A stretch of 64,000 bases of DNA from Candidatus Omnitrophota bacterium (lineage in GTDB: Bacteria; Omnitrophota; Gorgyraeia; Zapsychrales; Fredricksoniimonadaceae), in NCBI GenBank assembly GCA_013285735.1, contig JABDGZ010000003.1, forward strand, positions 19,756 through 83,755, in the 5' to 3' direction. Position 1 is the stretch's first letter; each line of letters begins with the position of its first letter. The position numbers and the translations under genes are program-made. Below are positions 18,737-45,025 of this stretch, piece by piece. Under the pieces are notes generated by a model that was given only the letters and a program-made list of their open reading frames with translations, did no database searches and was not told where the DNA came from.

Positions 18737-18800
18737 GTCATCCTGAACGAAGTGAAGGATCTTAAAGTTTTTTAAGATTCTTCGCTACGCTCAGAATGAC
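18737..18800. repeat. Imperfect 25-bp inverted repeat (REP-like hairpin, possible ppk terminator)
   Basis: gtcatcctgaacgaagtgaaggatc (18737-18761) against gattcttcgctacgctcagaatgac (18776-18800). The arms are complementary at about 20 of 25 positions with a 14-nt AT-rich spacer. Confidence 0.6.
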
Positions 18801-18810
18801 AGTAAATTTT

Positions 18811-22089: not shown

Positions 22090-22120
22090 GCTGCCATTAA
22101 TCTTATAACTAAGTCCAGAG

Positions 22121-22149
22121 TTGACGATGCTTGCTCTTGAGATTAGAAT
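22121..22149 (+). promoter_or_regulatory. Sigma70-like promoter for the wHTH/GH57/malQ unit
   Basis: TTGACG (22121-22126), 17-nt spacer, TAGAAT (22144-22149). GGAGGAG SD precedes the ATG at 22176. Confidence 0.4.
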
Positions 22150-22175
22150 ATTAGTCAGAATATACTGGAGGAGAT

Positions 22176-22439
22176 ATGATGAAAGAAAAAGTTATTGAAA
22201 CAGCAGGAAAGGCATGGCGATTTTTAGGGCAGAACGGGCAAACAAATGTTGCCCAATTGGCCAAGGCGCTTAAAGAGAAGGATGAAGTGGTTCTTCAGGC
22301 GGTAGGTTGGCTGGCCCGCGAGGATAAAATCGACTATACCGTTAAGAACCGCCGCACCTTTGTTTCTTTGGTAGAAGGGGAATTACGTGCTTTTAACACG
22401 GCTGTTTACAATATGCATGGGAAGGTTAAGGGGAGCTGA
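22176..22439 (+). CDS. Small winged-helix protein (DUF2582-like)
   Basis: 87 aa. AGKAWRFLGQNGQTNVAQLAKAL...AVGWLAREDKI matches the DUF2582 wHTH pattern. Confidence 0.6.
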   Translation: MMKEKVIETAGKAWRFLGQNGQTNVAQLAKALKEKDEVVLQAVGWLAREDKIDYTVKNRRTFVSLVEGELRAFNTAVYNMHGKVKGS

Positions 22440-22441
22440 CT

Positions 22442-24889: not shown

Positions 24890-24895
24890 GGTCAT

Positions 24896-29749: not shown

Positions 29750-30985
29750 ATGAAAAATATTTGGAATACATTGTTTTTGGAAGAACGGCCGTCTATTGGG
29801 TTGTCGTTTTTTAGGATTTTTGTGGCCTTGACTGTCGGGCTGCATGTGATTCCGTCGTTTTTTCATTTGGATGATAATTATCTCTCCACGGCGTTTAAGA
29901 CATTTAATACTGATTTCTTTCCGCAGGCCTTTGTTAATTGGGTGCAGCAGAGCCCGGACGTTTTGGTTATTTTTTTCGTTTGGGCTTTTGTCATTACCTG
30001 GTTTTGTTTTCTCATCGGATTGTTTTCGCAGATCAGCTGTATTTTAATGACAGTTTGTTGTTATTATTTTTACGCGCTTAATTGTTTTCATATCGGCACC
30101 CTTTCATGGGATATTTTGTTGGTGACGCTTTTTTTGATGTGCGTGACACCGTATCATGGGGATTATTTTTCTCTTGATGCTTTGCGCCGAGGAGATACGG
30201 ATGCCTGGCGGCGAACGCGTCCGTTTTTTATCCAGCGGTTATTACAGCTACAAACAGCATCCACGTTTTTTTTCACCGGCCTTTATAAGATTACCGGGGA
30301 TGGCAATTGGATCACTGGTAATCCCATCTACTATTTGATGAATTATCCTTCAGAAGGGGTGACCAAGCATTTTCTGCTGAAAGAATGGATGGCCGTACAC
30401 CCCACTTTTTGTTATGTGACTGGCCTCATGATTGTGGCGACAGAGTTAACGATGCCGTTTCTGCTTTTTATTCCTAAGACCCGGCGTGCAGCGATTATTC
30501 TTGGATTGTGTTGGCAGATTCTGCTGGTTTTGACCCTGGATGTCCCTACGATCTTTATATTTTTGTTCCCGGCACAGATGCTCCTGTTTATCCATCCGCA
30601 AAAAATTATAGGCTGGATTGTCGCCCGTCGTCGCATTAATGCGAACAGTCCTCGGGCGATCATCATCTACGATGGGGAGTGTGGGTTTTGCCGTTCCAGT
30701 GTCAGGGTCGTACAAGTGATGGATTTGTGGGATAAGCTTGAGTATCTGCCAGGCCCCAAGGGCATGAGTGAGATGCGTCTTAATTTTCCGGACGGAAAAA
30801 CTTTTGGAGGTTTCTTTGCTTTCCGACAGCTTGCATGGCTTTGCCCCATGCTTTATCCGATGATACCAATCGTTTATTTTCCAGGCGCAGGGATTTTAGG
30901 GCCTTTTGTTTATCGATGGGTGGCCCATAACCGTTATTTATTTCCTGTTTTTCATTCCTGTGCCGATGGAAAGTGTCATTTATGA
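29750..30985 (+). CDS. HTTM-domain (vitamin-K-carboxylase-like) membrane protein fused to a DCC1-like thiol-disulfide oxidoreductase domain
   Basis: N-terminal SIGLSFFRIFVALTVGLHV and a polytopic HTTM-like region. C-terminal IIYDGECGFCRSSV (the DUF393/DCC DGxCxxC motif). Confidence 0.7.
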   Translation: MKNIWNTLFLEERPSIGLSFFRIFVALTVGLHVIPSFFHLDDNYLSTAFKTFNTDFFPQAFVNWVQQSPDVLVIFFVWAFVITWFCFLIGLFSQISCILMTVCCYYFYALNCFHIGTLSWDILLVTLFLMCVTPYHGDYFSLDALRRGDTDAWRRTRPFFIQRLLQLQTASTFFFTGLYKITGDGNWITGNPIYYLMNYPSEGVTKHFLLKEWMAVHPTFCYVTGLMIVATELTMPFLLFIPKTRRAAIILGLCWQILLVLTLDVPTIFIFLFPAQMLLFIHPQKIIGWIVARRRINANSPRAIIIYDGECGFCRSSVRVVQVMDLWDKLEYLPGPKGMSEMRLNFPDGKTFGGFFAFRQLAWLCPMLYPMIPIVYFPGAGILGPFVYRWVAHNRYLFPVFHSCADGKCHL

Positions 30986-32094
30986 TTTCCGCATCGAATA
31001 TCCCCAGAGTGATTTGGATCCACACCATTGTGATTATAGCTATCGGGCTTCTTGCTCTTTATAGCGCTTCATTCAATAATGATGTGGTTGGCCTTTCCGT
31101 ATTTTATGATCAGCTTTTTTGCGCCGGGCTTGGGATTTTGTTGATGCTGTTATTAAGTAACGGGGATTACCGCAAATTTTTTGACGTGGCATATATTGTT
31201 TATGGTATTAGCGTGGTTTTTTTAATTTTGGTGCTTGTCATGGGGCGTCAAGCCTTAGGTGCCACACGATGGTTTTCAGTCGCTGGTGTAAGTTTCCAGC
31301 CTTCTGAATTCAGCAAGCTGGCCATTATCTTTTTTTTAGGCCGTTATTTCTCACAGCGTGCTCCTAAATTATCTTTTGATTTTTCCAGTTCCCTGCGTGA
31401 TCTTTGGGCTGATTTGATTTGGCCCCTGATATTGATAGGTATTTCAATGGCCCTTATTTTTAAACAACCGGATTTGGGTACTGCTATTTTAGTGATGGGT
31501 ATTTTTTTAATTATGCTTTTTGCCAGCGGTCTGGCCTTGAGGTTTTTTTGGGCGCTGCTTGGAGTTTTGGCTTTATTGATGCCTGTGGCATGGCACTTTT
31601 TAAAGACGTATCAAAAAGATCGGCTTTTAGTTTTTCTTGATCCCAGCCTTGATCCTTTGGGGGCAGGGTATACGATTACTCAATCAAAGATCGCCGTGGG
31701 TTCTGGCGAGCTTTTTGGCAAGGGCTGGCTTTCCGGTACACAAAATCAATTAAATTTTTTACCGGAAAGGCATACTGATTTTATTTTTTCTGTCATTGGT
31801 GAGGAATGGGGCCTTTTGGGCGGGATTGTGTTGGTCTATTGTTATGGCGTTATCATTTACTGCGGTTTTAAAATTGCCCGGCATAACAAAGATCCTTTTG
31901 GGCAATTGGTGGCTGTTGGTATCGTCAGTATTTTGGCCATGCAGGTGGTGATCAACATCGGCATGGTCATGGGGCTTTTGCCGGTGGTTGGAATTACCTT
32001 ACCGTTAATCAGCTATGGCCGCACCTCTTTTATGGTTTTTGCAATATTGATTGGGTTTTTATTGAATTTGAGTAAAAAACGAACCATTTTTTAA
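30982..32094 (+). CDS. rodA: Rod-shape-determining SEDS protein RodA
   Basis: FtsW/RodA/SpoVE family blocks (QPSEFSKL, TDFIFSVIGEEWG, PLISYGRTS). ATGA overlap start at 30982. Confidence 0.8.
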   Translation: MISASNIPRVIWIHTIVIIAIGLLALYSASFNNDVVGLSVFYDQLFCAGLGILLMLLLSNGDYRKFFDVAYIVYGISVVFLILVLVMGRQALGATRWFSVAGVSFQPSEFSKLAIIFFLGRYFSQRAPKLSFDFSSSLRDLWADLIWPLILIGISMALIFKQPDLGTAILVMGIFLIMLFASGLALRFFWALLGVLALLMPVAWHFLKTYQKDRLLVFLDPSLDPLGAGYTITQSKIAVGSGELFGKGWLSGTQNQLNFLPERHTDFIFSVIGEEWGLLGGIVLVYCYGVIIYCGFKIARHNKDPFGQLVAVGIVSILAMQVVINIGMVMGLLPVVGITLPLISYGRTSFMVFAILIGFLLNLSKKRTIF

Positions 32095-32139: not shown

Positions 32140-32589
32140 ATGAAGCATTTCCGTAAAACAGTGAATAAGCAAATAGGTGAAATTTTAGTTGAGCGAGGTG
32201 TTCTTTCAAAGGCTAAACTGGAAGAAGTCCTTGTTTTTCAAAAGGAAAAAGGTGTTTTATTTGGCGAAGCATTAGTCCAGATGAAATTAGCCACTGAAGA
32301 GGACGTGGTACAGGCGTTGACTTGTCAGTATGGATTTCCCTATCTTCCTTTAGCTAATTATGAAATTGGCCCAGACGTGGTCGCGACTGTTCCTGTGAAG
32401 GTATGCAAGCAGTATTGCCTGGTTCCTATTGATAAAATTGGGCGCAGTTTGACCTTGGCCATGGCTAATCCTTTAAATGTCCAGGCCTTGGAAGATGTCG
32501 AGAAGGTTACCGACTGTTCCGTGCAGGCATTTGTCAGTACTGCAACCGAAATTAACAGTGCCATCAATCGTTATTACGAAACGCGCTGA
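32140..32589 (+). CDS. Stand-alone MshEN / T2SSE_N domain protein (149 aa)
   Basis: QIGEILVERGVLSKAKLEEVLVFQ fits the 24-residue MshEN c-di-GMP motif except for its first residue. The rest resembles GspE/PilB N-terminal domains (PLNVQALEDV). Confidence 0.7.
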   Translation: MKHFRKTVNKQIGEILVERGVLSKAKLEEVLVFQKEKGVLFGEALVQMKLATEEDVVQALTCQYGFPYLPLANYEIGPDVVATVPVKVCKQYCLVPIDKIGRSLTLAMANPLNVQALEDVEKVTDCSVQAFVSTATEINSAINRYYETR

Positions 32590-34313
32590 TGCTGCCCACT
32601 CAAGAAACTCTTAAAGAAATCCTTCTGCGGGACCACCTGATAACCCCTGAAGATCTCAACCGGGCCATTCAAGAACAGGAGCGGTCCGGCGGGGAATTAA
32701 GCCGTATTCTTTTGAGGCTTAAGTTGATTGCGGAAGATCAGTTGAGCGTTGTTTTAAGCGAAGCTCTGCAATTGCCTCTGATTAATTTAAATTTGTTCCG
32801 GATTGATCCCTCGCTTTTAAAATTAATCCCTAAAGAAACAGCCGAAAAATCGTTATTGATCCCCATTTCCAAGCTCAATGATCAGCTGACCATTGCCATG
32901 GTTGATCCTTTGGATATATTGACGATCGACAATATCAAAGCCATGACTTCCATGTCGGTCAGTGTTATTTTAGCGCGTCCCCGCGAAATGCGCGCTGCCC
33001 TTGAGCGCAGTTACGCAAACAATAATTCTTCGGACCTCGAGGAGATTTTTCAGGATATTAAAGAAACGAAAGAGGCAGAACGCCTCGAGCTGGTCAAAGA
33101 TCAATCTCAGCCTAATAAACGGGTGGTTGAGAATCTCAGTGAAGAAGCTCCGATCATCACATTGACAAATACGATTATCCAACAAGCGGTGGCGGCCAAG
33201 GCCAGTGATATATTCATCGAGCCTATGGAAAATTGCCTGCGCATCCGTTATCGCGTCGATGGTTTTATCCGGGAAATCGACCGCATGTCCAAGGATCTGC
33301 ATTTTCCCCTGATCTCCCGTGTTAAAGTTATTTCAAGTTTGGATATTGCTGAACACCGTCTTCCTCAAGATGGGAGATTCCGGATCGTGACCGATGATAA
33401 CAAAGAGGTGGATTTTCGCGTCAATGTGCTGCCCACGGCCATGGGGGAAAAAATTGTTTTGCGTATTTTGGATAAGAACCAGGAAATGGCGGATATTGAT
33501 AAGTTGGGCTTTGAACCTGATTCCTTGAGCCGATTAAAAGAGTGCTGCCAGAAACCTCACGGCATGATTTTGGCCTGTGGTCCGACGGGAAGCGGAAAAA
33601 CTACGACCTTATATGCGATCCTAAAATATATCAATTCTCCGGGACGCAATATCGTGACCGTTGAAGATCCGGTGGAATTTCAAATGAAAGATTTTAATCA
33701 GGTTAATATCCGCACGGAGTTTGGCTTGTCCTTTCCTGCGGCTTTGCGTTCTATATTGCGTCAAGACCCGGATGTGATTTTGATCGGTGAGGTGCGGGAT
33801 TCTGAGACCCTGGATATTGCGGTCAAGGCCGCCCTGACCGGGCATTTAGTGGTTTCTTCTTTGCACACTACGACGGGGCCAGGCTCTATTACCCGGATGA
33901 TTAACATGGGGGTAGAACCATTTCTAATCACTTCCTCAGTGGTGGTTATTGTGGCCCAGCGCCTGGTGAGGCGGGTGTGTCAGAAGTGCCGTGAGCCGTA
34001 TACAGTTTCTGACGATGTTATCAAAGAATTTCATCTTAACGAATTAATACCTGATCAAAAGTGGCAGTTCTATAAACCCAAAGGCTGCGATAAATGTTTG
34101 AATACCGGCTATAAGGGACGGGTTGGAATTACCGAAACCTTGGTCTTGAGCAATAAAATTAAAGAATTGATCTTAATTTCAAGTTCTGAGGCCCAGATCA
34201 AGAATGCGGCACGTGCGGACGGCATGAAAACGATGCGCGAAGATGCTGTGATCAAAGCTTCCCAGGGATTGACGACACTCGAAGAAGTGATCCGTTTAAC
34301 AGCACCTGATTAA
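32589..34313 (+). CDS. PilB/GspE-family secretion ATPase 1
   Basis: Walker A GPTGSGKTT, Asp/His boxes, tetracysteine CQKC...CDKC, N-terminal MshEN-like domain. Confidence 0.9.
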   Translation: MLPTQETLKEILLRDHLITPEDLNRAIQEQERSGGELSRILLRLKLIAEDQLSVVLSEALQLPLINLNLFRIDPSLLKLIPKETAEKSLLIPISKLNDQLTIAMVDPLDILTIDNIKAMTSMSVSVILARPREMRAALERSYANNNSSDLEEIFQDIKETKEAERLELVKDQSQPNKRVVENLSEEAPIITLTNTIIQQAVAAKASDIFIEPMENCLRIRYRVDGFIREIDRMSKDLHFPLISRVKVISSLDIAEHRLPQDGRFRIVTDDNKEVDFRVNVLPTAMGEKIVLRILDKNQEMADIDKLGFEPDSLSRLKECCQKPHGMILACGPTGSGKTTTLYAILKYINSPGRNIVTVEDPVEFQMKDFNQVNIRTEFGLSFPAALRSILRQDPDVILIGEVRDSETLDIAVKAALTGHLVVSSLHTTTGPGSITRMINMGVEPFLITSSVVVIVAQRLVRRVCQKCREPYTVSDDVIKEFHLNELIPDQKWQFYKPKGCDKCLNTGYKGRVGITETLVLSNKIKELILISSSEAQIKNAARADGMKTMREDAVIKASQGLTTLEEVIRLTAPD

Positions 34314-34316
34314 TTT

Positions 34317-35981
34317 ATGGATACGACCCAGCAACGCATTTTAAAAACTCTCAAAACTCTGCCGAACATCAATCCGGTGGATGTGGATGCATTGATAGAG
34401 GCCCAGCAAGATAAAAATGTCAATTTAGTCAGGGCCTTGCTCAAGCAGGGGATCATCTCCGAGCAGGATTTGTTGGTTCTTTTGATGCGTGAGTTGCACG
34501 TGCCTTCCATTGACCTGACCCAATACCGTTTTGATGAACGTCTTAAAAGCATTATTGGAGAAAAGACGGCGCGCCAGTATCTGGTAATGCCCTTATCAAT
34601 GCTAGGGCAAACCCTGACAATAGCGATGGCTGATCCCTTAAATGTATTTATCCTGGATGATTTGCGTAATCTGACAGGTAAGGACATTGAGATGGTGATT
34701 GCGACCGAAAGTCAGATCCTGCGTGGTATTGACCAATTTTACAATTCATCTTCTACGGGCCTGGCTGATTTTGGTTCGAATGTGCAAACTGAACAGGATG
34801 AGGCGTTGGCCGTGGAAGAAGCGCCGGTTATCCGCATTGTTAATTTGGTTATCAAGGAAGCATTGCGTCAAAGGGCGTCTGACATTCATATTGAACCGCA
34901 AGAGTTGGGGATGCGTGTGCGGTTTCGTATCGACGGTATATTGCAGGATATATTAACCATCCCCAAGGAAAGTAAAAATGCCGTTGGCGTGCGCATTAAG
35001 CTCATGGCAAATTTGGATATCACTAACACCCAGACCCCGCAGGACGGCCGTTTTAAAATGAAGGTGGGAAAACAGGAAGTGGATTTCCGGGTATCGATGC
35101 TGCCGACGACCTTTGGCCAGAAAATCGTCATGCGTGTGCTTGATAAGAATAATCTTTCAGTGGGCTTATCCAAGTTAGGGTTTTCCAAAGAGGCGATGAC
35201 TGTTTTAGAAGCGTCTATTTATAAACCTTACGGGATGATCCTGGTGACAGGCCCCACCGGCAGCGGTAAATCAACAACCTTGTATTCTTTGATCAGTAAA
35301 TTAAATACACCGGAGCGGAACATCATCACCATTGAAGAACCAGTGGAATATTTAGTGGATGGCCTGACTCAAATTGAAGTAAAATCAGATATCGGGCTTA
35401 ATTTTGCGACGGGCTTACGTGCAGTTTTGCGTCAGTCACCGGATGTGGTGATGGTGGGCGAAATCCGGGACGCGGAAACGGCGGACATTGCGATTAAAGC
35501 TTCCCTGACAGGTCAGTTGGTCCTTTCAACCTTGCATACGAATAGCGCGGCAGGTGCGGTGACCCGTTTGGTGGACATGGGCCTTGAGCCTTTTTTAGTG
35601 GCCTCCAGCCTCGTTTTAGTTTGTGCCCAGCGGTTGTGCCGGCGCATTTGTGATTCTTGCAAAAAACCGATGGATATCAATCCGGACATGTTGCAAAAGA
35701 TACAGCATAGGCTTAAACCCGGTACGGTTTTATATGAAGGCAAGGGTTGTGAGCGTTGCCGGGGCACTGGGTATAAAGGCCGTGTGGGTGTGACGGAAGT
35801 CCTGCAAATAGACGATAATATCCGTGATATGCTTCTTAAAAGAAAAACGTCCATGGACATAACCCGCTACGCCCAGAAAAATCAAGGGATGAAATTGCTT
35901 TTTGATGATGTCGTTGATAAAATGATTGCAGGAGAGACTACACTGACAGAAGTCTTTCGCGTGGCTTCTGAAGATGAATAG
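34317..35981 (+). CDS. PilB/GspE-family secretion ATPase 2
   Basis: Walker A GPTGSGKST, tetracysteine CDSC...CERC, N-terminal MshEN-like domain. Paralog of the upstream gene. Confidence 0.9.
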   Translation: MDTTQQRILKTLKTLPNINPVDVDALIEAQQDKNVNLVRALLKQGIISEQDLLVLLMRELHVPSIDLTQYRFDERLKSIIGEKTARQYLVMPLSMLGQTLTIAMADPLNVFILDDLRNLTGKDIEMVIATESQILRGIDQFYNSSSTGLADFGSNVQTEQDEALAVEEAPVIRIVNLVIKEALRQRASDIHIEPQELGMRVRFRIDGILQDILTIPKESKNAVGVRIKLMANLDITNTQTPQDGRFKMKVGKQEVDFRVSMLPTTFGQKIVMRVLDKNNLSVGLSKLGFSKEAMTVLEASIYKPYGMILVTGPTGSGKSTTLYSLISKLNTPERNIITIEEPVEYLVDGLTQIEVKSDIGLNFATGLRAVLRQSPDVVMVGEIRDAETADIAIKASLTGQLVLSTLHTNSAAGAVTRLVDMGLEPFLVASSLVLVCAQRLCRRICDSCKKPMDINPDMLQKIQHRLKPGTVLYEGKGCERCRGTGYKGRVGVTEVLQIDDNIRDMLLKRKTSMDITRYAQKNQGMKLLFDDVVDKMIAGETTLTEVFRVASEDE

Positions 35982-36002
35982 CTTAGCTCAAGGAGAATTG
36001 AC

Positions 36003-36431
36003 ATGGATGCTTATAAAGTTTTGTTAGGAGAAATTTTAATTCAACGTAAAAAAATTACCCGCGAGCAGCTGGACGCAGCTTTGAGTACTCAGAAGGAAAA
36101 AGGCGGATTTCTTGGTGAAATCCTTGTTAACTTAGGGCTTTTGGATGAACGGGATATTGTCGTGGCCTTAGTCGTGCAGTGCGGTTTGCCATACATCGCC
36201 GTCAATAAATACACCATTGACCCCGAGATCGTGCGTTTGATCCCTAAGGAAGTTGCCCAAAAAGAAAAAGTAATTGCTTTAGACCGCATCGGCGAGATTT
36301 TAAGTGTGGTGATGATTAATCCTTTGACGGATGACAAGAAATCTTATTTAGAATCACTGACCAAATGCCGTATCGCTACCTTTATTTCGACTAAATCAGA
36401 AATTGAAGAAGCCATTGCGCGTAATTATTAA
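36003..36431 (+). CDS. Stand-alone MshEN / T2SSE_N domain protein (142 aa)
   Basis: LLGEILIQRKKITREQLDAALSTQ is a partial MshEN motif. Paralog of 32140-32589. Confidence 0.7.
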   Translation: MDAYKVLLGEILIQRKKITREQLDAALSTQKEKGGFLGEILVNLGLLDERDIVVALVVQCGLPYIAVNKYTIDPEIVRLIPKEVAQKEKVIALDRIGEILSVVMINPLTDDKKSYLESLTKCRIATFISTKSEIEEAIARNY

Positions 36432-36439
36432 AAGGATCC

Positions 36440-37657
36440 ATGCCCACCTATAAATATACCGCCCGCGACCAGGAAGGCAAAAGTGTTGATGGCAGGATTT
36501 CCGCGGACAATGAAGCAATGATCGTTGCTGAACTGCGTAAACGTGACCTGATTATTTTAAGCATTGCGGAAGAAAAAGAATCGGTTTTTAAGAAATCAAG
36601 CACTAAGCCTAAAGCTACCAAAAAAGTCAAACCCGAAGATTTGGTTATTTTTACCCGTCAGTTTGCCACCATGGTTGATGCGGGGATACCTATTTTACAA
36701 TCTTTGGAAGCGTTGAGCGAACAAACCGCTAATCCCAATTTTAAAGCAGCCCTTGTTACCATCCGCGAAGATATACAGACAGGCAGCAGCCTTTCTGACG
36801 CATTTGAAAAGCATTCTAAGATATTTGATCAGTTGTATGTAAATATGATTCGGGTCGGTGAAAGCGGTGGCATGCTCACGGATATTCTTGAGCGGGTGGC
36901 TTCGTATTTGGAAAAAAGCGAGCGACTCCGTCAGAAGGTGCAGGGAGCCCTGATTTATCCGGCGGTGGTTGTGAGCATGGCCGCCATGATCACGGTTGGA
37001 TTGCTCGTTAAGGTTGTCCCTACCTTTGCCCAGATTTATTCATCACTGGGGCAAAAATTACCAGCCATGACCCAGATGCTGATTGATTTTAGTAATTTAC
37101 TTCAACACGATTTGCTATTTCTGGTAGCTGGCGGTTTCGCTATTGTATTTCTTTTTAATTGGTACAAAAAAACACCTGCCGGCCATATCCAGGTGGACAC
37201 CTTGCTTTTAAGGATGCCCGTATTTGGAGAATTGATTTGTAAAGTTTCGGTGAGCCGCTTCTGCCGGACCTTTTCCACCTTAAGCCAAAGCGGAGTGCCT
37301 ATTTTAGAATCTTTAGATATTGTCGGAAGAACTTGTGGTAACAGGGTGATCGAAATTCTGGTCGATGACATCAAGACCAGCGTCAAGGAAGGGAATAGCA
37401 TTGCTGATCCTTTGTCTAAAAGTACTATTTTTCCTCTGATGGTCACCCGGATGATCGCCATCGGGGAGAAGTCTGGCCAATTGGATAAAATGTTATCCAA
37501 GGTAGCTGAATTTTATGATGAGCAGGTGGATGTGGCCGTTGAGGGTTTAACTAAATTAATTGAACCTTTGATTATCGGGTTTTTGGGAATCGTGGTTGGC
37601 TTTATCGTCATCGCCTTGTTCATGCCAATTTTAAACATGACATCAGCGATGAAATAA
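36440..37657 (+). CDS. PilC/GspF-family platform protein
   Basis: Two T2SSF repeats (FTRQFATMVDAGIPILQSL and FCRTFSTLSQSGVPILESL) and three TM segments. Confidence 0.9.
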   Translation: MPTYKYTARDQEGKSVDGRISADNEAMIVAELRKRDLIILSIAEEKESVFKKSSTKPKATKKVKPEDLVIFTRQFATMVDAGIPILQSLEALSEQTANPNFKAALVTIREDIQTGSSLSDAFEKHSKIFDQLYVNMIRVGESGGMLTDILERVASYLEKSERLRQKVQGALIYPAVVVSMAAMITVGLLVKVVPTFAQIYSSLGQKLPAMTQMLIDFSNLLQHDLLFLVAGGFAIVFLFNWYKKTPAGHIQVDTLLLRMPVFGELICKVSVSRFCRTFSTLSQSGVPILESLDIVGRTCGNRVIEILVDDIKTSVKEGNSIADPLSKSTIFPLMVTRMIAIGEKSGQLDKMLSKVAEFYDEQVDVAVEGLTKLIEPLIIGFLGIVVGFIVIALFMPILNMTSAMK

Positions 37658-37661
37658 AATA

Positions 37662-38672
37662 ATGAGGCGTATGCGTTTATTGTTTACTGTTATTTTAAGT
37701 ATAATTCTTTTGAATGGCCGCGCTTGGGCTCAAGAGGAAAATGTCAGCATAGCTGCCTCTGCCTTGCAGGGGGTATTGTCTAATTTAAAACAGAGTGTCG
37801 AAAAATTGAGTTTAGACAATGATCAATTAACTGCCAAAGATAATTATATCAAACAGCAGGTTTTACAGTTGCAAGCGCAGTTAGGCCAGCTTGAGGCCCA
37901 AGGCAATGTTTTAAATACAGCGGCAGTAAAATTGCAGGATAAGAATACCCGTCGGGCTAGAAAAATCGCTCAGATGGAAGCAACAAATTTTGATCTTGAT
38001 AATCGCACCCAGAAAGCCGAAGCCAGCATTAAATTAATCCAGAAGTCTTTGGATGCAGGGTACCAGGAAGATCAAAGATTGCTTTTGCAGCTTAAGGGCA
38101 TGACAAATATTTTGCCAGAGGCTCCCAAGGCCCAACCCTTGGAATCCCCATCCGCGAACCGCCGCCAAAAAGAAAAGTTAAGATTGATGAAAATGGTTTA
38201 TGACAGCCAGCAGCGGCAGGAATTGCTGCATGAATCAATTTTGGAATTTCAAAAAAATACGGCCCTCTTGCCCGCGGCCAGTGCCTTGGCGCATCAGCAA
38301 AATTTAAAAGAACAGATTAAAGATTTAGAAGCTGAGATAGCGGCCTATCCGCAAGAAAAGTCTTTAGGGAATTCAGAGGTGGCTAATCAGTGGGATAATA
38401 CTCAGCTTAGACAACTAGAATTGGAGTTGAAAGTCCTTGAGAGGAATTATGCGCAGCTTAAAAACTTGATGGAAGAAATGGGTAAGAAAGTCCAAGGTTC
38501 CCAGATGACGGTCAGTGAGAATGTTGAAGGCCAAAAATTACAGGGTAGCATGGATGATTTAAGCCGCCAGAGCGAGGGTCTAAGGGCCAGTTTAGATGAT
38601 TTACGCACCCAAATGATAGACTTGGACAAACGCAAATCCCACCTGGAAGCAATGATCCAGCAGTTGCCTTGA
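37662..38672 (+). CDS. Exported Gln/Leu-rich coiled-coil protein
   Basis: Signal peptide ending in AWAQE. Long heptad-like Q/L/E/K-rich sequence with no recognised domain. Confidence 0.5.
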   Translation: MRRMRLLFTVILSIILLNGRAWAQEENVSIAASALQGVLSNLKQSVEKLSLDNDQLTAKDNYIKQQVLQLQAQLGQLEAQGNVLNTAAVKLQDKNTRRARKIAQMEATNFDLDNRTQKAEASIKLIQKSLDAGYQEDQRLLLQLKGMTNILPEAPKAQPLESPSANRRQKEKLRLMKMVYDSQQRQELLHESILEFQKNTALLPAASALAHQQNLKEQIKDLEAEIAAYPQEKSLGNSEVANQWDNTQLRQLELELKVLERNYAQLKNLMEEMGKKVQGSQMTVSENVEGQKLQGSMDDLSRQSEGLRASLDDLRTQMIDLDKRKSHLEAMIQQLP

Positions 38673-38803
38673 TTTCCGAACCAAAGCTCATGGTTCGGAG
38701 AAATACTTGCCTTTTAGATAATCCAATGCTATATTTATTTCCGAACCAATAATAGTGGTTCGGAAATATTTATATATAAAATGAGGCATATATGGTTCGG
38801 AAA
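38673..38803. repeat. Two palindromes TTTCCGAACCA-N7-TGGTTCGGA(A/G)A plus a third half-site covering the Fic start codon
   Basis: IR1 at 38673-38703 is imperfect. IR2 at 38737-38767 has perfect 12-bp arms (atttccgaacca / tggttcggaaat). The half-site tggttcggaaa lies at 38793-38803. Confidence 0.55.
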
Positions 38804-39838
38804 GTTCGATTAATTGAAGGTAGTGGTCTTAAAAAGGATGTTCAAAGGTTACGGGGCAGGTTCGGAAATTTGATCAACGTGACCAATGCTGAATGGTATT
38901 CTTTGTTTAAAGATGAGATACGTAATTCGATTGCCATTGAAGGTGTTTTTGCCAATCGGCAAGAACTCTTGGATGTCTTAGAACATAATAAACGTACCAA
39001 TAAGCAAAAAGCAGCTGCCATTTTAGGTTATTTTGAGGCCGCCAGTGCTATGTATGAGTACGCTAATAATCAGTTCAAAGAAAATGAATTTATTTTGCGT
39101 ATGGCTGATATTAAACAGGTTCATACCTTGCTGATGCGTTATGAAAAAGATTTGGGGACTTTTATAGGCACAGTCGGTGATTTTCGTAAGAATGATATTC
39201 AAGTTGCTCAAGCGACATTTAAACCTATTAATATGTTTCATGTCCGTGAGGCAATGGAGTTGCTGATCAAATGGTTTAATGAAAATTCAAAGAAGAAAGT
39301 TTATGATGATGTGACCTTGGCTGCGATGACACATGTTTGGTTTGAAACAATTCATCCCTTTAGTGATGGTAATGGGCGTGTGGGTAGAATCCTTTTGTCG
39401 TATATTCTTATCGGTCAAGGATTGGTTAATGTTGCTATCAAAGGGATTTCTAAACAAGAACGGGAAGCATATTATAATATTTTAGAAAAATCCGACCCTT
39501 GTTTTAATGAAATTCACCGCTTGATTGAGAAAAATAAGAAATTTACTTCTACGGGTATCAATAAAGTCATTAAAAAAGAGGCGTTTACACCATTTACTCT
39601 AATGATTTCGGGATTATTGAAAGAAGCTATTAACCGGCTGGAGGGTGGCAGGTTAACTAATTTGAACAAAGAGGCGATATTGCCGCTTCGTGATTTAGCC
39701 AGGATGTATGATTATTCCCAGGATTATCTGCGTAATTTAATTAACCGTGGTCAATTGAAAGCACATAAAAAAGGTAAGCTTTGGTATGTGCGTGTGCAAG
39801 ATTTAGCGGGGTATATCAATTTAGTTTCAGAAAAATGA
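38792..39838 (+). CDS. Fic-family (AMPylase-type) protein, class II, with C-terminal excisionase/MerR-like HTH
   Basis: Fic motif HPFSDGNGRVGR. N-terminal inhibitory-helix motif SIAIEG, matching (S/T)xxxE(G/N). The C-terminal LRDLARMYDYSQDYLRNLINRGQLKAHKKGKLWYVRVQDL resembles HTH_17. Confidence 0.85.
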   Translation: MVRKVRLIEGSGLKKDVQRLRGRFGNLINVTNAEWYSLFKDEIRNSIAIEGVFANRQELLDVLEHNKRTNKQKAAAILGYFEAASAMYEYANNQFKENEFILRMADIKQVHTLLMRYEKDLGTFIGTVGDFRKNDIQVAQATFKPINMFHVREAMELLIKWFNENSKKKVYDDVTLAAMTHVWFETIHPFSDGNGRVGRILLSYILIGQGLVNVAIKGISKQEREAYYNILEKSDPCFNEIHRLIEKNKKFTSTGINKVIKKEAFTPFTLMISGLLKEAINRLEGGRLTNLNKEAILPLRDLARMYDYSQDYLRNLINRGQLKAHKKGKLWYVRVQDLAGYINLVSEK

Positions 39839-39984: not shown

Positions 39985-40407
39985 ATGAAGCCAAAATTTG
40001 AAATAGCAGACGGCTGGATTATGGTTCCGGTTCATTTGAAGGTTTATCCGCTACAGGCTGTTCATTCTTCTGGATATGCCTTTATGGATCGGGCCCACGT
40101 CAGGCTTGAGGAAGAAAAGAAGGATGTTGTAGCTGTTTGGCTTAAGCCTAAGAATGACAAACATGATTTGCAGAAACTGGCCTTGGAATTTTCTGATGAA
40201 TTGTTGAATTATGCGCATTATTTTAGCAGTTTGAAGGCCAATGCAGAGAATATGAAGGTCTTATTACAAAGGGCCCTTTTTTCAGCTTCTCCATCAATCG
40301 TTAAAGAAGCAGAAGAAAAAGAGATTGAAAACTTGATCAAGGAGCTTGAAGCTGAAGAAAAGCAAGCAAGCTCGAAGACAAAGACAACGCCTAAGTCGCG
40401 AAAATAA
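39985..40407 (+). CDS. HxsD-like protein (His-Xaa-Ser system accessory protein family, tentative)
   Basis: 140 aa. VYPLQAVHSSGYAFMDRAHVRLE and FSDELLNYAHYF...MKVLLQRALF resemble the LLNDYxLRE-type family (TIGR03976). Sits directly upstream of the HxsB-like rSAM gene. Confidence 0.5.
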   Translation: MKPKFEIADGWIMVPVHLKVYPLQAVHSSGYAFMDRAHVRLEEEKKDVVAVWLKPKNDKHDLQKLALEFSDELLNYAHYFSSLKANAENMKVLLQRALFSASPSIVKEAEEKEIENLIKELEAEEKQASSKTKTTPKSRK

Positions 40408-40420
40408 TAAAACTTTTCTT

Positions 40421-41800
40421 ATGACACAAACCGCACAATCTTCTATCTTGCCGTTTAACGCTGAAAAAATTAATGATAAATATTTGGTGACCAACATGAT
40501 GGGGTGTTGGGATGCTTTGAATGAAGGTGAATTTCGTCAACTCAACAGCCTGCGCGTTGAGCAGGGAGGGGCGTTATTTAACCGTTTATTAGAGCGTGGA
40601 TTGATCGTCGATGAAGATAATATACGCCGTGTCATTGGCGGGTATAGGAATTTAAACGCGAATCTTTTTACAGATACAAGTCTTCATATCGCTGTTGTGA
40701 CAAAGCGCTGTAATCTGCGTTGTACCTATTGTCATGCCGAAGGTGGAGCTTCTTCTGAGGATATGTCCCTTGAGACAGCCTCCCGCGTCTTGCAATATCT
40801 TTTTGATGTGCGCAGCAACTCAGTGACACTTGAGTTTCAAGGTGGAGAGCCTTTGCTTAATTGGCCGGTGGTAAAATTCATGACCGAGCATGCGCGTCAG
40901 TTCAACACCCTGGGAAAGAACCTTAATATTGTTATTGTGACCAATATGCTGCTCATGGATGATGAGAAAATGCGTTTCTTTGCTGATCATGATGTGATGG
41001 TATGTACGTCTTTGGATGGTCCAGCAGATATCCATGACAAAGCGAGGGTCGATGTTGCAGGGCGCGGGACACATGCCCAATTGGTCGAAAAAATTGAGCG
41101 TTTTGCCAAGCAATTCGGACGTAAGGTGCATATGTTACCAACAATAACCAAGCATTCATTAGCCTACCCTGAGCGGATCATTGATGAATACCTGCGTCTG
41201 GGACAAAGCGAAATTCCTTTAAGACCGGTCAATAAAATAGGCTATGCCTGTGGCAATTGGGAAGATGTTGGATATACAGCCGAAGAATTCAATGTATTTT
41301 ATACTAAAGCAATGGCGTATATTATGAAATTAAATACATCAGGAACCTATATCAGCGAGCGGATGGCCAGGACCATTTTAACCAAGGTCCTGCTCAAGAA
41401 AGACCCAGGTTATGTTGATATGATGAATCCCTGCGGGGCTGGGCGTGCGGTGATGTCTTACGCACCGGATGGAGGATGTTACCCTACGGACGAGGCAAGG
41501 ATGTTAGGTGATAATATTTTCCGGTTGGGGAATATCAAGGATGAAGATTATGATAAAATGCTTAATAAGGAAAATTTGTTTTTTCTTTTAAGTGCCGGCT
41601 GTTCTGATTTGTGGAATTACCGTTCTGTTTATAGCCCCTGGCTTGGTGTTGATCCTGTGGTGAATTATGCGGTAGAAAAAAATGTTATACTAAAGGGAAG
41701 CTCACGTTTGCAACAGGTGTTGAAGCATCAGTTTAAAACGGTTTTTTCTTATCTGCTGGGTGATAAAAAGCATGCGGAAGTTTTTCAACGCTGGTTATAA
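40421..41800 (+). CDS. Radical SAM/SPASM peptide maturase, HxsB-like
   Basis: N-terminal ILPFNAEKINDKYLVTNMMGCWDALNEGEFRQL, then LHIAVVTKRCNLRCTYC (CxxxCxxC). C-terminal Cys-rich SPASM-like region MNPCGAGRAVMSYAPDGGCYP. The ATG at 40421 is preferred to the TTG at 40346. Confidence 0.75.
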   Translation: MTQTAQSSILPFNAEKINDKYLVTNMMGCWDALNEGEFRQLNSLRVEQGGALFNRLLERGLIVDEDNIRRVIGGYRNLNANLFTDTSLHIAVVTKRCNLRCTYCHAEGGASSEDMSLETASRVLQYLFDVRSNSVTLEFQGGEPLLNWPVVKFMTEHARQFNTLGKNLNIVIVTNMLLMDDEKMRFFADHDVMVCTSLDGPADIHDKARVDVAGRGTHAQLVEKIERFAKQFGRKVHMLPTITKHSLAYPERIIDEYLRLGQSEIPLRPVNKIGYACGNWEDVGYTAEEFNVFYTKAMAYIMKLNTSGTYISERMARTILTKVLLKKDPGYVDMMNPCGAGRAVMSYAPDGGCYPTDEARMLGDNIFRLGNIKDEDYDKMLNKENLFFLLSAGCSDLWNYRSVYSPWLGVDPVVNYAVEKNVILKGSSRLQQVLKHQFKTVFSYLLGDKKHAEVFQRWL

Positions 41801-41812: not shown

Positions 41813-42088
41813 ATGAAAAAGAAAATAAAAAGTAAGGTCATTAAAAAAAAGATCCCGCTAACCAAGTCCCTTGGTGAACTGATGAAGGACGAAGACGGTT
41901 TTGTCAGCAAGGAAACTATTTTAAAGGTGGGGTTATCCACCGTCGCAGCACTGGGAATAGCCGGTGCTTTGACAGATATTAGTTCCGGGACGGATGTCAC
42001 AACGCATTCTAATACAGTTTCTCCTGATCCATCTAATGGGCCAAACTGTGCCACACACCACAATGTTACGACACACACTTCATATTAA
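41813..42088 (+). CDS. 91-aa candidate precursor peptide (HxsA-like position) with Lys-rich N-terminus, hydrophobic segment and Thr/His/Asn/Ser-rich tail
   Basis: GGGGAG SD 7 nt upstream. Sequence reads MKKKIKSKVIKKK...LKVGLSTVAALGIAGALT...DVTTHSNTVSPDPSNGPNCATHHNVTTHTSY. The VTTH(S/T)(N/S) unit occurs twice. Confidence 0.5.
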   Translation: MKKKIKSKVIKKKIPLTKSLGELMKDEDGFVSKETILKVGLSTVAALGIAGALTDISSGTDVTTHSNTVSPDPSNGPNCATHHNVTTHTSY

Positions 42089-42860: not shown

Positions 42861-44091
42861 ATTTCAACCCAAGGTTGGTATTTATTTTTCCCATTATGAG
42901 TGTCTAGGGCACACCACTCGCGTAATGGCTCTTAGTGAACTAATTAAAGTAAAATACCCTCAAAGTGATCTTTTTGTCATTCAGGCTGGGCTGCCGCAAA
43001 AACATACTCAGTTAGATAATTTGTCTCAAGTTTTTACCTTGCCGCACCCCTTTATGAATAGACAACATTTTCGCCAAGCTCTTAATGCTAGTAATATTGA
43101 TAGTGTGTTGCGTTCAAAAATTTGTAGCAAGATCATTCATTCTCAAAATCCAAAGCTTTTTATTACGGAAACCTTTCCTTTGGGGCATGACGCCTGCCGC
43201 TATGAATTGATTCCATCGCTTGTAGATGCGGCGCGTGGTGGTTCAAGAATCTGGTCCATTGCCGGATATCCTCTGTTGACAGGTAAATCCCAGAATTGGA
43301 AAAATAAAGTCATGGGTCTATATGAAAAGATCTTTATTTGTTGCCCTCAAGAAGAAAAGATTTGGCTTCGTGAGTTTATGCCAAATTCAAAACAGAGAAT
43401 TGAACATCAGGAATTCTTTGATCGATATGCAGCAAAAATCAATTTTATAGGATACTTCTTGCCTCAAGGTCAATTGATTCATGACAAAATTACTAAATTT
43501 AACAGTACTGAAACCAAGTTTAGTCATAAGGTCTTGGTGCTGCGTGGTTCAGGTGCTGTCTATCCTAAATTGATTGCCCAGGCTATTCTCGCCAGTGATG
43601 ATTTGCCCGAATATTTTGAGATGACGATTGTCACTGGTCCTGCAACCACGAATGATGAATGGCAATTATTTAATCGTTTAATGCATAAAAAGCGTTTGAA
43701 TAATGTAAAATTATTACGTGTGGTGAGCCATTACGAAGATCTTATTAAAGTCGCCAGCGTTTGTGTTGCCACTTCAGGTTATCATACTTCAGCCATGCTA
43801 TTGAAGTACCGCAAGAGAGCTGTATTGGTGCCCTTTGAGGGCTATGATAAAACCAATTTTTATGAGCAAAAAGCCAGAGCTGCGATGCTTAAAGAAAAGA
43901 TTGGAGCGCAGGTTATATCGATCAAGGAGCTAAACGCCAAGAACTTGCTCAAGGCCATCTTGATTGCAGCTCAACAGAAAGAAAGTAAGCAGATTTTATC
44001 TAAAGGTTTTTTTGGGGCATCAAGCCGCTTGAATCAAGCGCTGACTGAGCTTTTTGGGCGATCGCAGGGTCAAATAAAGGATCAGCTTTAA
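42850..44091 (+). CDS. GT-B-fold glycosyltransferase-like protein (COG4671/GT28-like), paralog A
   Basis: LGHTTR, FITETFPLG, GYPL, RGSGAVYP, TGPATTNDE and SGYHTS blocks are shared with 62164-63378. Confidence 0.6.
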   Translation: MKNKFQPKVGIYFSHYECLGHTTRVMALSELIKVKYPQSDLFVIQAGLPQKHTQLDNLSQVFTLPHPFMNRQHFRQALNASNIDSVLRSKICSKIIHSQNPKLFITETFPLGHDACRYELIPSLVDAARGGSRIWSIAGYPLLTGKSQNWKNKVMGLYEKIFICCPQEEKIWLREFMPNSKQRIEHQEFFDRYAAKINFIGYFLPQGQLIHDKITKFNSTETKFSHKVLVLRGSGAVYPKLIAQAILASDDLPEYFEMTIVTGPATTNDEWQLFNRLMHKKRLNNVKLLRVVSHYEDLIKVASVCVATSGYHTSAMLLKYRKRAVLVPFEGYDKTNFYEQKARAAMLKEKIGAQVISIKELNAKNLLKAILIAAQQKESKQILSKGFFGASSRLNQALTELFGRSQGQIKDQL

Positions 44092-45025
44092 AGGCGCTGC
44101 CGTAGGCACGTAAGGACATGGCTCGACAGCCTCCAAGACAGGTCTCAATTACGGGACATTGTTGACATAGAGAGGGAAGATAATCAGTGGTGTTAAGCCG
44201 TTGAACAAAGGGGTGTTCCCAAGCTGCTTTGAGGGAATTCCCCAAATTTTCTTCAATAAAATAGCTTGGTTTGTAGTATCCTTTGGCACTGTAAACGATT
44301 CGTAGATGCCCCTCATCGAGTTTAGCGCCTAAAAATATTTTTTGACCAACATTTAAATTTCCTGTAACACATAGCGGGATTGGATTAGAAATAAATACAC
44401 GAATGCCTTGTTGTTGGGCTTTGAGGATCTTGATCGATAATTTTAGATAGAATTCATGATCCATCTGTTTGATCTCTTCATTAGGATGATCGATGGGGCG
44501 TTGCAAGAGCCACGCAGAAGGATTAATTTTGGTAATGAGAGGCAGAAAATCTTCAAATGATTCTACCTTGCTTGGCGTCAGGACGGTTGCAATCCACACG
44601 GTTGGAAGATGGGCTTTTAGTGTAAATATATTTCTTATCTTTTCCAGAAAAGGGAATTTAGTGTGTGTGTAGGCGGCATTAGTTTTTTCGTTATATCCTT
44701 GTACAGAGATGTGAGCCACATCAACTGTTGAAATGATGGTTTTCATTAATGCGGGAGAAATATTTTCTGCAGTGGTATTAATGATAGTATCTAATTTTTT
44801 TGATTTAACGTAGGTTAGAATTTGACCGATATCAGGATGTAGCAGTGGTTCGCCGCCAGTGATACGAATGGCCTTAACCCCGGATTGTGAGACATCATCA
44901 ATGGTTTTTATGATATCCTTAAGAGGGACATCCGGAATTCTTGGGCCAGTGCAATAAGGACATACTTGACGACAGCGTCCCGTTACTTCAAGAATAATTT
45001 CGATGGGTAATGATGGGCGATTCAT
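44000..45025 (-). CDS. Radical SAM/SPASM protein (possible HxsC-like partner)
   Basis: GRCRQVCPYC cluster motif, GGEPLLHP, and C-terminal CQQCPVIETCLGGCRA (SPASM). Confidence 0.8.
   Translation of the reverse strand: MNRPSLPIEIILEVTGRCRQVCPYCTGPRIPDVPLKDIIKTIDDVSQSGVKAIRITGGEPLLHPDIGQILTYVKSKKLDTIINTTAENISPALMKTIISTVDVAHISVQGYNEKTNAAYTHTKFPFLEKIRNIFTLKAHLPTVWIATVLTPSKVESFEDFLPLITKINPSAWLLQRPIDHPNEEIKQMDHEFYLKLSIKILKAQQQGIRVFISNPIPLCVTGNLNVGQKIFLGAKLDEGHLRIVYSAKGYYKPSYFIEENLGNSLKAAWEHPFVQRLNTTDYLPSLCQQCPVIETCLGGCRAMSLRAYGSAFKADPLFDPAIAQKAQSALDSSGLMPQKNL

Follow-up and report, generated by a model that had tools for sequence, protein, structure and literature searches.

Tandem PilB-type ATPases and stand-alone MshEN proteins in the motor half of a split type IVa pilus operon of Omnitrophota

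Results

Gene content of the locus

A 64-kb stretch of DNA from a Candidatus Omnitrophota metagenome-assembled genome (MAG), hereafter the window, contains six tightly packed genes, all on the + strand (Table 1). The first encodes a small protein, designated N1, that consists of a stand-alone MshEN domain (Pfam PF05157), the receptor domain for cyclic di-GMP (c-di-GMP) of Wang et al. 2016. It is followed by genes for two PilB-type ATPases (B1 and B2), a second stand-alone MshEN protein (N2), a PilC/GspF-family platform protein of the inner membrane, and an exported coiled-coil protein (CC). These six open reading frames (ORFs), called in a first-pass annotation made from the sequence alone, were confirmed in position and strand. 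We propose, with a probability of roughly 60%, that the genes represent the motor and platform part of an Omnitrophota type IVa pilus (T4aP) operon in which the free MshEN proteins would sense c-di-GMP in trans for the two PilBs.

The stop codon of N1 and the start codon of B1, read at their junction in the window, overlap by 1 nucleotide. Annotation pipelines name N1 “hypothetical protein” or, wrongly, “PilB”. RodA is encoded upstream of N1, possibly on the same transcript. Among NCBIfam models, PilC scores 413.2 with GspF (cut-off 424), 410.2 with Myxococcus-type PilC, and 405.5 with Thermus-type PilC. CC begins with a Sec-type signal peptide, MRRMRLLFTVILSIILLNGRAWA followed by QEE, that was assigned by reading the sequence; Q, E, K, L, N, and A make up 58% of its residues. 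Membership of CC in a known family was rejected, its matches being to generic coiled-coil Pfam models only.

Conservation of the module across Omnitrophota

Relatives of the locus were retrieved by scanning one genome per species with N1 as bait, which returned 99 and left 80 that were kept. All 80 are Omnitrophota MAGs, some of them mislabelled “uncultured Planctomycetales”. Sequences identical or almost identical to N1 derive from metagenome assemblies of Candidatus Omnitrophica/Omnitrophota, and a profile built from divergent stand-alone MshEN members returned only Omnitrophica-named matches. Many short MshEN members are also present in a 50%-identity library, which carries no taxonomy. N1 homologues form more than 120 clusters at 81–100% identity, almost all of them exactly 149 amino acids in length, and about 80 species genomes share, with hardly any deviation, the order rodA-N1-B1-B2-(N2)-pilC. 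The module is therefore not a chance arrangement. RodA is encoded upstream of N1 in most of the 80 loci and, in most of those, directly adjacent to it.

Median identities to the proteins of the window are similar throughout the operon (RodA, 63%; N1, 62%; B1, 59%; B2, 58%; N2, 57%; PilC, 60%). The stand-alone MshEN proteins are thus under selection as strong as that on the enzymes, which speaks against their being remnants in decay. The operon can do without N2, which is truly absent from 19 loci, where only 22–135 bp separate B2 from PilC. CC is a conserved member, with an exported Q/E/K/L-rich ORF located directly after pilC in 46 of 51 testable loci; in relatives, it lies between pilC and the pilin gene. 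Other Omnitrophota (L085, P0391–P0405, and P0127) encode a stand-alone MshEN variant of 212–221 amino acids in the same place before two PilBs, with a seeming insertion after the four-helix bundle.

Location of the remaining pilus genes

The window does not encode a pilin, secretin, PilM, PilN, PilO, PilP, or PilT that could be detected with a six-frame prepilin regular expression, with tblastn (queries: Omnitrophota PilA, PilM, PilN, PilO, PilP, and PilQ, minor pilins, and both ATPases), or with Pfam searches of most of the larger ORFs. The first-pass annotation had likewise reported no pilin, secretin, PilM/N/O, or PilT; its inventory of pilus genes was correct in this respect and overlooked a Peptidase_A24 gene (Table 1). 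It had called the module “pilin-less”, and the idea of a self-standing module of this kind is not borne out by the relatives. Forty-four loci extend for at least 3 kb beyond pilC, and 35 of these carry a type IVa pilin-like ORF and/or pilM within 6–7 kb past pilC in the same direction; in several of the 35, pilN, pilO, a pilP-like gene, and pilQ are present as well. The usual layout is pilC, the exported coiled-coil gene, a type IVa pilin gene, and then either PilM-PilN-PilO-PilP-like-secretin or minor pilins. The downstream type IVa pilins are canonical and carry …GFTLVEIMIVVAIIALLAAIAIPNLLRAK… or …KGFTLVEIMIVVAIIALLAAIAIPNLLRAK…. The distant locus L085 also has precomputed matches to N_methyl, PilM, and PilO. 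The ATPases are encoded together with pilin, PilC, or PilMNOPQ in 35 of 44 relatives and in L085, and pilC is adjacent in the window. According to an earlier study, T4aP clusters are present in nearly all Omnitrophota, and Velamenicoccus archaeovorus expresses them (PMC10066038).

The loci that have neither a downstream pilin nor pilM are L027 and the sub-clade to which the window belongs (L001–L004, L007, L009, and L014), in which N1 is at least 83% identical. Intermediates are found as well. In L010, CC is followed directly by pilMNOPQ; in L005, a 3.5-kb insert separates CC from pilM. The inserted cargo varies among close relatives and includes Fic, a His-Xaa-Ser (Hxs) cassette, toxin-antitoxin genes, and a TonB-type receptor. 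What was inserted in the window begins with a gene for a Fic-HTH protein and continues with a His-Xaa-Ser system and an extended island of radical-SAM and glycosyltransferase genes. The gap in the window is a recent insertion of foreign DNA after CC that is confined to this shallow sub-clade.

A search for PilM recovered P0277, which shares the 114,261-bp contig signature of N1. Its contig, which stems from the same sample as the window (SRR8422745) and does not overlap it, encodes PilM, PilN, PilO, a PilP-like protein, and a secretin with STN, Secretin_N, and Secretin domains. The pilMNOPQ genes of this genome apparently lie outside the window on the same 114,261-bp contig. Of the pilus genes that the first-pass annotation had proposed to look for in the rest of the genome, pilM, pilN, pilO, a pilP-like gene, and pilQ were found in the same sample and the major pilin was not. 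That annotation had named a T4P gene set in the same operon as the finding that would overturn its “pilin-less” label, and this is effectively what the relatives show. The window contains the motor half of a split T4aP operon, and the framing as a pilin-less module should be dropped.

It could nevertheless be argued that the ATPases, the platform, and the coiled-coil protein suffice for a pilin-independent device, such as a type II secretion system (T2SS) or another export machine. This argument can appeal to the lack of pilin, secretin, and PilMNO genes in the 64-kb window, to PilC, whose top NCBIfam match is GspF at a score just under the cut-off, and to a terminator-like hairpin that follows CC. 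The hairpin likely marks the end of the truncated operon in this genome; it is weak evidence because terminator-like sites in the window total 16, compared with 16.0 expected from shuffled sequences. Neither promoter nor terminator scans of the window gave counts higher than the shuffle expectation. We regard a pilin-independent device as very improbable. Only one shallow sub-clade, in which the cargo varies, is pilin-less; 35 of 44 relatives carry a pilin and/or pilM directly downstream on the same strand; in L005 and L010, pilM has stayed behind CC; and this genome has retained pilMNOPQ. In addition, no genes for GspC, GspG–K, GspL, or GspM are present, and both ATPases are best classified as T4aP PilB. 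A T2SS in particular was rejected, given that GspE and GspF scores fall below their cut-offs, relatives carry PilMNOPQ and a T4a pilin, and the ATPases score best as PilB; Gsp pseudopilins, GspL/M, and GspC were found neither in the window nor in the relatives.

The two PilB-type ATPases

B1 and B2 share 39% identity and appear, from family scores, to be PilB-type but divergent. Their best-scoring family is PilB (TIGR02538; B1, 621.3 bits; B2, 586.7 bits), even though both scores lie below the equivalog cut-off of 675.65. Scores with GspE (560.0 and 569.7 bits; cut-off 630.25), TfpB (NF053534; 444.4 and 445.0 bits; cut-off 850), and PilT/PilU (TIGR01420; 185.5 and 188.4 bits; cut-off 319.1) are lower. 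The closest structures in the Protein Data Bank (PDB) for both ATPases are the PilB/PilF proteins of Geobacter, Myxococcus, and Thermus, with Geobacter PilB (5TSG/6OLJ) the best match of B1. In a midpoint-rooted neighbor-joining tree, the first ATPase of every operon falls into one clade and the second into another, including those of the distant loci L085 and L087. This separation indicates that the duplication is old and that the gene order has since been fixed.

Among 75 B1 and 66 B2 orthologues, no substitution was seen in the Walker A motif, the atypical Walker B motif and its catalytic Glu, the Asp box, Arg fingers, γ-phosphate His, or tetracysteine motif, and both proteins are predicted to be catalytically intact. 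The sole fixed difference that we found lies in the His box, where every B1 protein has TGH and every B2 protein has TGQ (66/66, and also in L085 and L087). Other PilB-type ATPases of the local set with a readable His box have TGH in 14 of 14 cases. In Geobacter PilB, the first His of this box (H413) packs with H420 around T411 between packing units, and H420 contacts the γ-phosphate (PMC5424180). B2 thus probably remains active as an ATPase, with a changed contact between subunits.

A precedent for one pilus being served by two extension ATPases, PilB and TfpB, is known from Acinetobacter baylyi (PMC11656802). The two ATPases at the Omnitrophota locus could divide the labor as PilB and TfpB do, form a mixed hexamer, or act as antagonistic motors. 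Under the last of these possibilities, B1 would extend the pilus and B2 would be a PilB-derived retraction or alternative motor that replaces PilT, in a phylum that possibly lacks PilT. N1 and N2 would then be c-di-GMP-dependent selectors in a gated two-motor switch, one or the other picking B1 or B2 for PilC/PilM. Clusters of the Myxococcus/Geobacter type have the order pilB-pilT-pilC, and B2 sits in the place of pilT. Moreover, a stand-alone MshEN gene adjoins each ATPase, the clade-wide change from TGH to TGQ in B2 affects a His-box residue that packs at the inter-subunit interface, and no PilT-like ORF was detected in the window or within 10 kb on either side of about 85 loci. The supplements of PMC10066038 and a literature search likewise yielded nothing on PilT in Omnitrophota.

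Several observations make antagonistic motors quite unlikely. B2 is a full-length PilB-type protein with the N1 domain and the tetracysteine Zn motif, both of which PilT lacks, and its score is 586.7 bits with PilB versus 188.4 with PilT/PilU. B2 is always present, whereas N2 is missing in about 30% of operons, and the PilT search covered the window and the 10-kb flanks of the loci. To our knowledge, no PilB-type ATPase drives retraction. The assignment of B2 as PilT or TfpB was itself rejected on the basis of family scores and architecture (about 560 amino acids, MshEN, CxxC…CxxC).

MshEN motifs of the stand-alone proteins and the ATPases

MshEN domains contain two half-motifs of 24 residues in tandem, separated by a 5-residue spacer, with the consensus RLGxx(L/V/I)(L/V/I)xxG(L/V/I)(L/V/I)xxxxLxxxLxxQ. 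The motif that the first-pass annotation had recognized in N1, QIGEILVERGVLSKAKLEEVLVFQ, corresponds to residues 11–34; next come the spacer KEKGV and the second half-motif. As that annotation had supposed, each of the small proteins is a complete, free-standing MshEN domain by Pfam and, for N1, by superposition of a structural model on 5HTL. Its description of N2 as the more degenerate of the two was too simple. N2 outscores N1 on the NCBIfam c-di-GMP_motif model (NF053729; cut-off 38; N2, 58.6; N1, 50.2; B1, 44.4; B2, no hit) and has the better second half-motif. Counted over the 11 specified positions, N1 matches the strict motif at 9 and 6 positions in its first and second halves and N2 at 8 and 9; under relaxed matching, the values become 10 and 9 for N1 and 8 and 10 for N2.

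The four MshEN copies of the operon differ in their conservation among orthologues. In N1, Gly3 is retained in 80/81 and 81/81 sequences in the first and second half-motifs, respectively, and Gln24 in 76/81 and 81/81; position 1 is Q/H, then L. N2 retains both residues in both half-motifs in 46/46 sequences, with L and then F/Y at position 1. In B1, Gly3 is replaced by K/Q and then S, the Gln of the second half-motif by G/A/S, and position 1 is R, then E. In B2, Gly3 is L/I/V and then D/V/E, the Gln of the second half-motif is Glu in 64/66 sequences, and position 1 is K/R, then S/G/P. At Gly3 of either half-motif and at Gln24 of the second, both ATPases have thus lost residues that N1 and N2 retain almost invariantly. 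The MshEN domain of B2 is the most degenerate of the four copies. Many stand-alone members of the family show the pattern LLGE…Q in the second half-motif.

The lost residues are those that matter in characterized proteins. The G11L mutant of Vibrio cholerae MshE shows no detectable c-di-GMP binding, and binding is reduced 72-fold by G40I, 12-fold by Q61A, and 9-fold by Q32A; XpsE, a natural non-binder, carries G11V, G40L, and Q61V (PMC5013675). Position 1 is more permissive. In the GSPII-B domain of Thermus PilF it is occupied by Lys and Leu, the K167L mutant still binds, a hydrophobic residue favors high affinity, and the consensus has been widened to R/K/L (PMC11731258). Loss of the Arg in N1 and N2 is thus not disqualifying, since position 1 tolerates R, K, or L.

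The AlphaFold2 model of N1 (predicted local distance difference test score, 92.6; predicted template modeling score, 0.83) contains helices at residues 12–18, 24–37, 41–47, and 53–64 followed by an alpha/beta part. In Foldseek, it superimposes on c-di-GMP-bound MshE (5HTL) with a template modeling score of 0.80–0.86 and a root-mean-square deviation of 2.2 Å over 139 columns. It also matches c-di-GMP-bound PilF GSPII-B and the PilZ-binding N-domain of Xanthomonas PilB (7LKO among the fold hits). By motif conservation, N1 and N2 are the best candidates in the module for c-di-GMP sensing. The same partition occurs in cis in the multi-MshEN PilB P0197, in which the distal MshEN domain is intact and the proximal one has no signature.

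Genes related to c-di-GMP beside the operon in other lineages

A gene for a HAMP-(GAF)-GGDEF-family membrane protein lies directly upstream of the stand-alone MshEN gene in 19 of 80 loci (L023–L026, L029, L030, L032, L033, L035, L037, L039, L040, L046, L047, L049, L054–L056, and L063), where it encodes 471–493 amino acids and sits between rodA and N1, and in the distant loci L085 and L087. L085 and L086 have the order HAMP-GAF-GGDEF-family gene, 212-aa MshEN-only gene, PilB, PilB, PilC, pilins, and PilM/O. L087 and L088 have the order mreB-mreC-mreD-pbp2-rodA, radical-SAM, HAMP-GGDEF, MshEN-only, PilB, PilB, REC-HD-GYP, and PilC. The GGDEF domains of these neighbors score 78–100 bits with Pfam; in 21 of 21 copies the signature reads RF[G/A][D/E]HEF, SDTEF, or GDNQF, and none has an RxxD I-site. 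An active diguanylate cyclase beside N1 was therefore rejected. Intact domains are found elsewhere: L087 encodes a REC-HD-GYP protein with intact HD and HHExxDGxGYP motifs in the slot of N2, and L056 encodes, between B2 and N2, a REC-GGDEF protein whose GGEEF is intact (148.5 bits), together with a GGDEF-AAA_16-HEAT protein of 1,383 amino acids.

N1 and N2 could alternatively be ligand-independent structural N-domains, derived from gene fission or representing fusion precursors, that join B1 and B2 non-covalently in a ring docking PilM/PilC, with Gly and Gln retained for folding. The best PDB sequence match of N1 is Thermus PilF, which has three GSPII domains, and the top matches in the 50%-identity library are ATPases with 2–7 MshEN copies; both would fit such an origin, as would the 1-nucleotide overlap of N1 with B1. 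Furthermore, the canonical Arg1 is present in no half-motif, and PilF GSPII-A is naturally non-binding despite a near-consensus motif. We consider this explanation unlikely. The residues that are invariant in N1 and N2 and lost from the ATPase N-domains are exactly those that contact the ligand, and folding alone fails to explain their retention because the N-domains of B1 and B2 fold without them. No N1-B1 fusion occurs among the 80 loci, N1 and N2 are 37–38% identical to each other versus 23–33% to the adjoining ATPase N-domains, and GGDEF-family, HD-GYP, and REC-GGDEF genes stand beside N1 or N2 in several lineages.

Our proposal that the free MshEN proteins sense c-di-GMP for a T4aP motor must also be set against a number of findings. 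The canonical Arg1 is found in 0 of 4 stand-alone half-motifs (Q/H, L, L, and F/Y), and the turn Gly10 is usually gone from one half-motif in each of N1 and N2. The c-di-GMP_motif model fails to separate B1 from N1 and N2, because B1 scores 44.4, above the cut-off of 38. A matching motif is also no guarantee of binding, as PilF GSPII-A shows: it does not bind although it is near-consensus, and restoring the consensus did not rescue binding (PMC12002112). The GGDEF-family neighbor of N1 is, judging from its signature, probably not a cyclase; the intact GGDEF and HD-GYP neighbors each occur in one lineage only (L056 and L087, respectively), and none of these c-di-GMP-related neighbor genes is present in this window. 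About 30% of operons lack N2, and the universality of N1 is partly circular given its use as bait for all relatives. Finally, the major pilin gene of this genome has not been located.

Other features around the module

The protein of the Peptidase_A24 family (prepilin leader peptidases; 301 amino acids) scores 29.4 bits against a cut-off of 26.5 and has no NCBIfam hit. It contains the catalytic GGDAK motif without a PilD-type N-terminal methyltransferase region, which gives it a TadV/FlaK-like look. Its gene lies about 7 kb downstream of the module in the radical-SAM island, and a 50%-identical homologue is encoded near the operon in L014.

Divergent from the pilM of this genome, and directly upstream of it, lies a gene for a protein of about 374 amino acids (L084, which stems from the sample of the window). 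It has a Flp-type class III signal, MNKRG followed by QSIVEYALIAILVILGIV, and then a Cys/Pro/Asn-rich domain; the gene caller began at a later Met and missed the signal. Flp-like N-termini are also found on proteins of 108–826 amino acids inside the T4aP operon in L005, L079, L051, and L068. The Flp-type protein may be an atypical pilin or an adhesin displayed on the pilus, and it could be a candidate substrate of the A24 peptidase.

The Hxs cassette of the window is also found after CC in L002 and L007. Beyond it lies a 20-kb island that is dense in radical-SAM/SPASM enzymes and in which G+C falls from about 0.44 to 0.33–0.40; the island further encodes GT28-like and GT9 glycosyltransferases, a DegT aminotransferase, and asparagine-synthase-like and DUF2064 proteins. 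Upstream of rodA, the window encodes a DCC/HTTM-like membrane protein and a signal-peptide-bearing Memo-AMMECR1 fusion. In L087, the T4aP operon is located downstream of a full mreB-mreC-mreD-pbp2-rodA elongasome operon. A polyphosphate/glycogen cluster of ordinary housekeeping genes elsewhere in the window encodes Ppx/GppA-HD, polyphosphate kinase, a ROK kinase, a branching-type GH13 enzyme, GH57-DUF3536, and a GH77 4-alpha-glucanotransferase.

Table 1 Coordinates of the module and of other features (window positions unless a locus is named)
Feature	Position	Strand	Remarks
RodA (SEDS glycosyltransferase)	30973-32094	+	Pfam FTSW_RODA_SPOVE 339.9 bits; 45 bp upstream of N1
N1, stand-alone MshEN	32140-32589	+	149 aa; Pfam MshEN 71.9 bits (cut-off 23.1)
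N1 half-motif 1	32170-32241	+	residues 11-34
N1 half-motif 2	32257-32328	+	residues 40-63
B1, PilB-type ATPase	32589-34313	+	574 aa; Pfam MshEN and T2SSE, T2SSE 444.6 bits
B2, second PilB-type ATPase	34317-35981	+	554 aa; Pfam MshEN and T2SSE, T2SSE 438.2 bits
N2, second stand-alone MshEN	36003-36431	+	142 aa; Pfam MshEN 50.6 bits (cut-off 23.1)
N2 half-motif 1	36021-36092	+	residues 7-30
N2 half-motif 2	36108-36179	+	residues 36-59; 5-residue spacer between halves
PilC/GspF-family platform protein	36440-37657	+	405 aa; Pfam T2SSF x2, 232 bits
CC, exported coiled-coil protein	37662-38672	+	336 aa
Terminator-like hairpin	38736-38768	+	13-bp stem, longest of scan; 64 nt past CC stop
Fic-HTH	38792-39838	+	first gene inserted after CC
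HxsD-like	39985-40407	+	
HxsB radical-SAM maturase	40346-41800	+	379.6 bits (cut-off 370)
HxsA-like peptide	41813-42088	+	91 aa; His-x-Ser/Thr repeats
Radical-SAM island	42850-63378		20 kb
Radical-SAM/SPASM gene of island	44000-45025	-	
Peptidase_A24 protein	45866-46771	+	
Radical-SAM/SPASM gene of island	50295-51674		
Radical-SAM/SPASM gene of island	57269-58210		
Radical-SAM/SPASM gene of island	59256-60257		
Radical-SAM/SPASM gene of island	60254-61222		
Radical-SAM/SPASM gene of island	61203-62216		
Polyphosphate/glycogen cluster	15178-26407	+	
GGDEF-family gene	L085:8589-10004		stop/start overlap with MshEN gene
Long stand-alone MshEN variant	L085:10001-10639		
GGDEF-family gene	L087:9135-10019		stop/start overlap with MshEN gene
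REC-HD-GYP	L087:13873-14937	+	
mreB-mreC-mreD-pbp2-rodA operon	L087:2198-7329		
REC-GGDEF and GGDEF-AAA_16-HEAT	L056:13919-18963	+	
Flp-type protein	L084:1062-2186	-	
Flp-like N-terminus	L005:16950-18299	-	
Flp-like N-terminus	L079:16654-19179	+	

Discussion

The layout of the relatives suggests an ancestral operon with the order (mreBCD-pbp2-)rodA, [HAMP-GAF-degenerate-GGDEF], N1, pilB1, pilB2, [N2], pilC, the coiled-coil gene, and pilA, continuing past pilA with pilM-pilN-pilO-pilP-like-pilQ or with minor pilins. In the sub-clade of this genome, foreign DNA inserted after the coiled-coil gene would have split off pilMNOPQ. We propose a model in which the two paralogous PilB proteins, as hexameric ATPases, would act on PilC to drive polymerization of the pilin. 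Extension would most likely be divided between the two in the manner of PilB and TfpB, or the two would join in a mixed assembly. The MshEN domains of the ATPases themselves would have kept the docking (C-terminal) subdomain and lost the residues that bind c-di-GMP. N1, and N2 where it is present, would serve as c-di-GMP receptors or adaptors acting in trans; bound to the motor or to the PilM/PilC platform, they would gate the assembly of pili by local c-di-GMP. In this role they would provide in trans the additional ligand-binding GSPII/MshEN domain that is built into Thermus PilF and other multi-MshEN PilBs.

Comparison with known systems places the operon among T4aP machines of the kind found in Myxococcus xanthus, Geobacter, and Thermus. 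It encodes PilB-type ATPases and PilC, and relatives add a T4a pilin, PilMNO, a PilP-like protein, and a secretin. Unlike a typical T4aP cluster, it has tandem PilB paralogues instead of pilB and pilT, one or two stand-alone MshEN genes, an exported coiled-coil protein between pilC and pilA, and ATPases that score below the PilB equivalog cut-off; in this genome it is, moreover, split. The MshEN domains of N1 and N2 resemble those of MshE, PilB, and PilF (5HTL and 8PDK) in fold, in the two half-motifs with their 5-residue spacer, and in Gly3, Gln24, and the hydrophobic positions. They differ in that they are free-standing, never carry Arg1, and often lack the turn Gly in one half-motif per protein. 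The degenerate copies in B1 and B2, on the other hand, resemble the non-binder XpsE.

Three further systems offer parallels for the proposed division between sensor and motor. In the FimX-PilZ-PilB system of Xanthomonas and Pseudomonas, a separate c-di-GMP sensor likewise acts through the N-domain of a non-binding PilB; there, the sensor is an EAL protein and the adaptor PilZ, whereas here an MshEN paralogue would take their place and no PilZ or EAL gene is present in the module. Acinetobacter baylyi likewise has two phylogenetically distinct PilB-type ATPases, PilB and TfpB, for a single T4aP machine. Neither B1 nor B2 is a TfpB orthologue, however, and their genes are adjacent, in fixed order, and distributed across the whole phylum. 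In PilF of Thermus thermophilus, several MshEN/GSPII domains per motor are specialized into binders and non-binders. PilF combines three GSPII domains in one polypeptide, whereas in Omnitrophota the putative binder is separate and the cis domain is degenerate.

Each element of this arrangement is already known on its own: T4aP from Omnitrophota, MshEN domains both as c-di-GMP receptors and in degenerate form, and the presence of more than one PilB. In the searchable literature, we found no description of their combination: a phylum-wide tandem pair of PilBs with stand-alone MshEN proteins, a partitioned binding signature, and an exported coiled-coil protein.

Omnitrophota are widespread, ultra-small, and probably host-dependent bacteria for which type IVa pili are thought to be central to attachment to larger cells. 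If our proposal is correct, this phylum naturally separates the ligand-binding module from the motor, an arrangement that bears on the role of the PilB N-domain and on the control of extension by c-di-GMP. Sensor and motor would be separate polypeptides that can be independently expressed, mutated, and mixed. The operon would then represent a second, phylum-wide case of two extension-type ATPases for one pilus, and it would define a third route by which c-di-GMP controls PilB, in addition to a built-in MshEN domain and FimX-PilZ.

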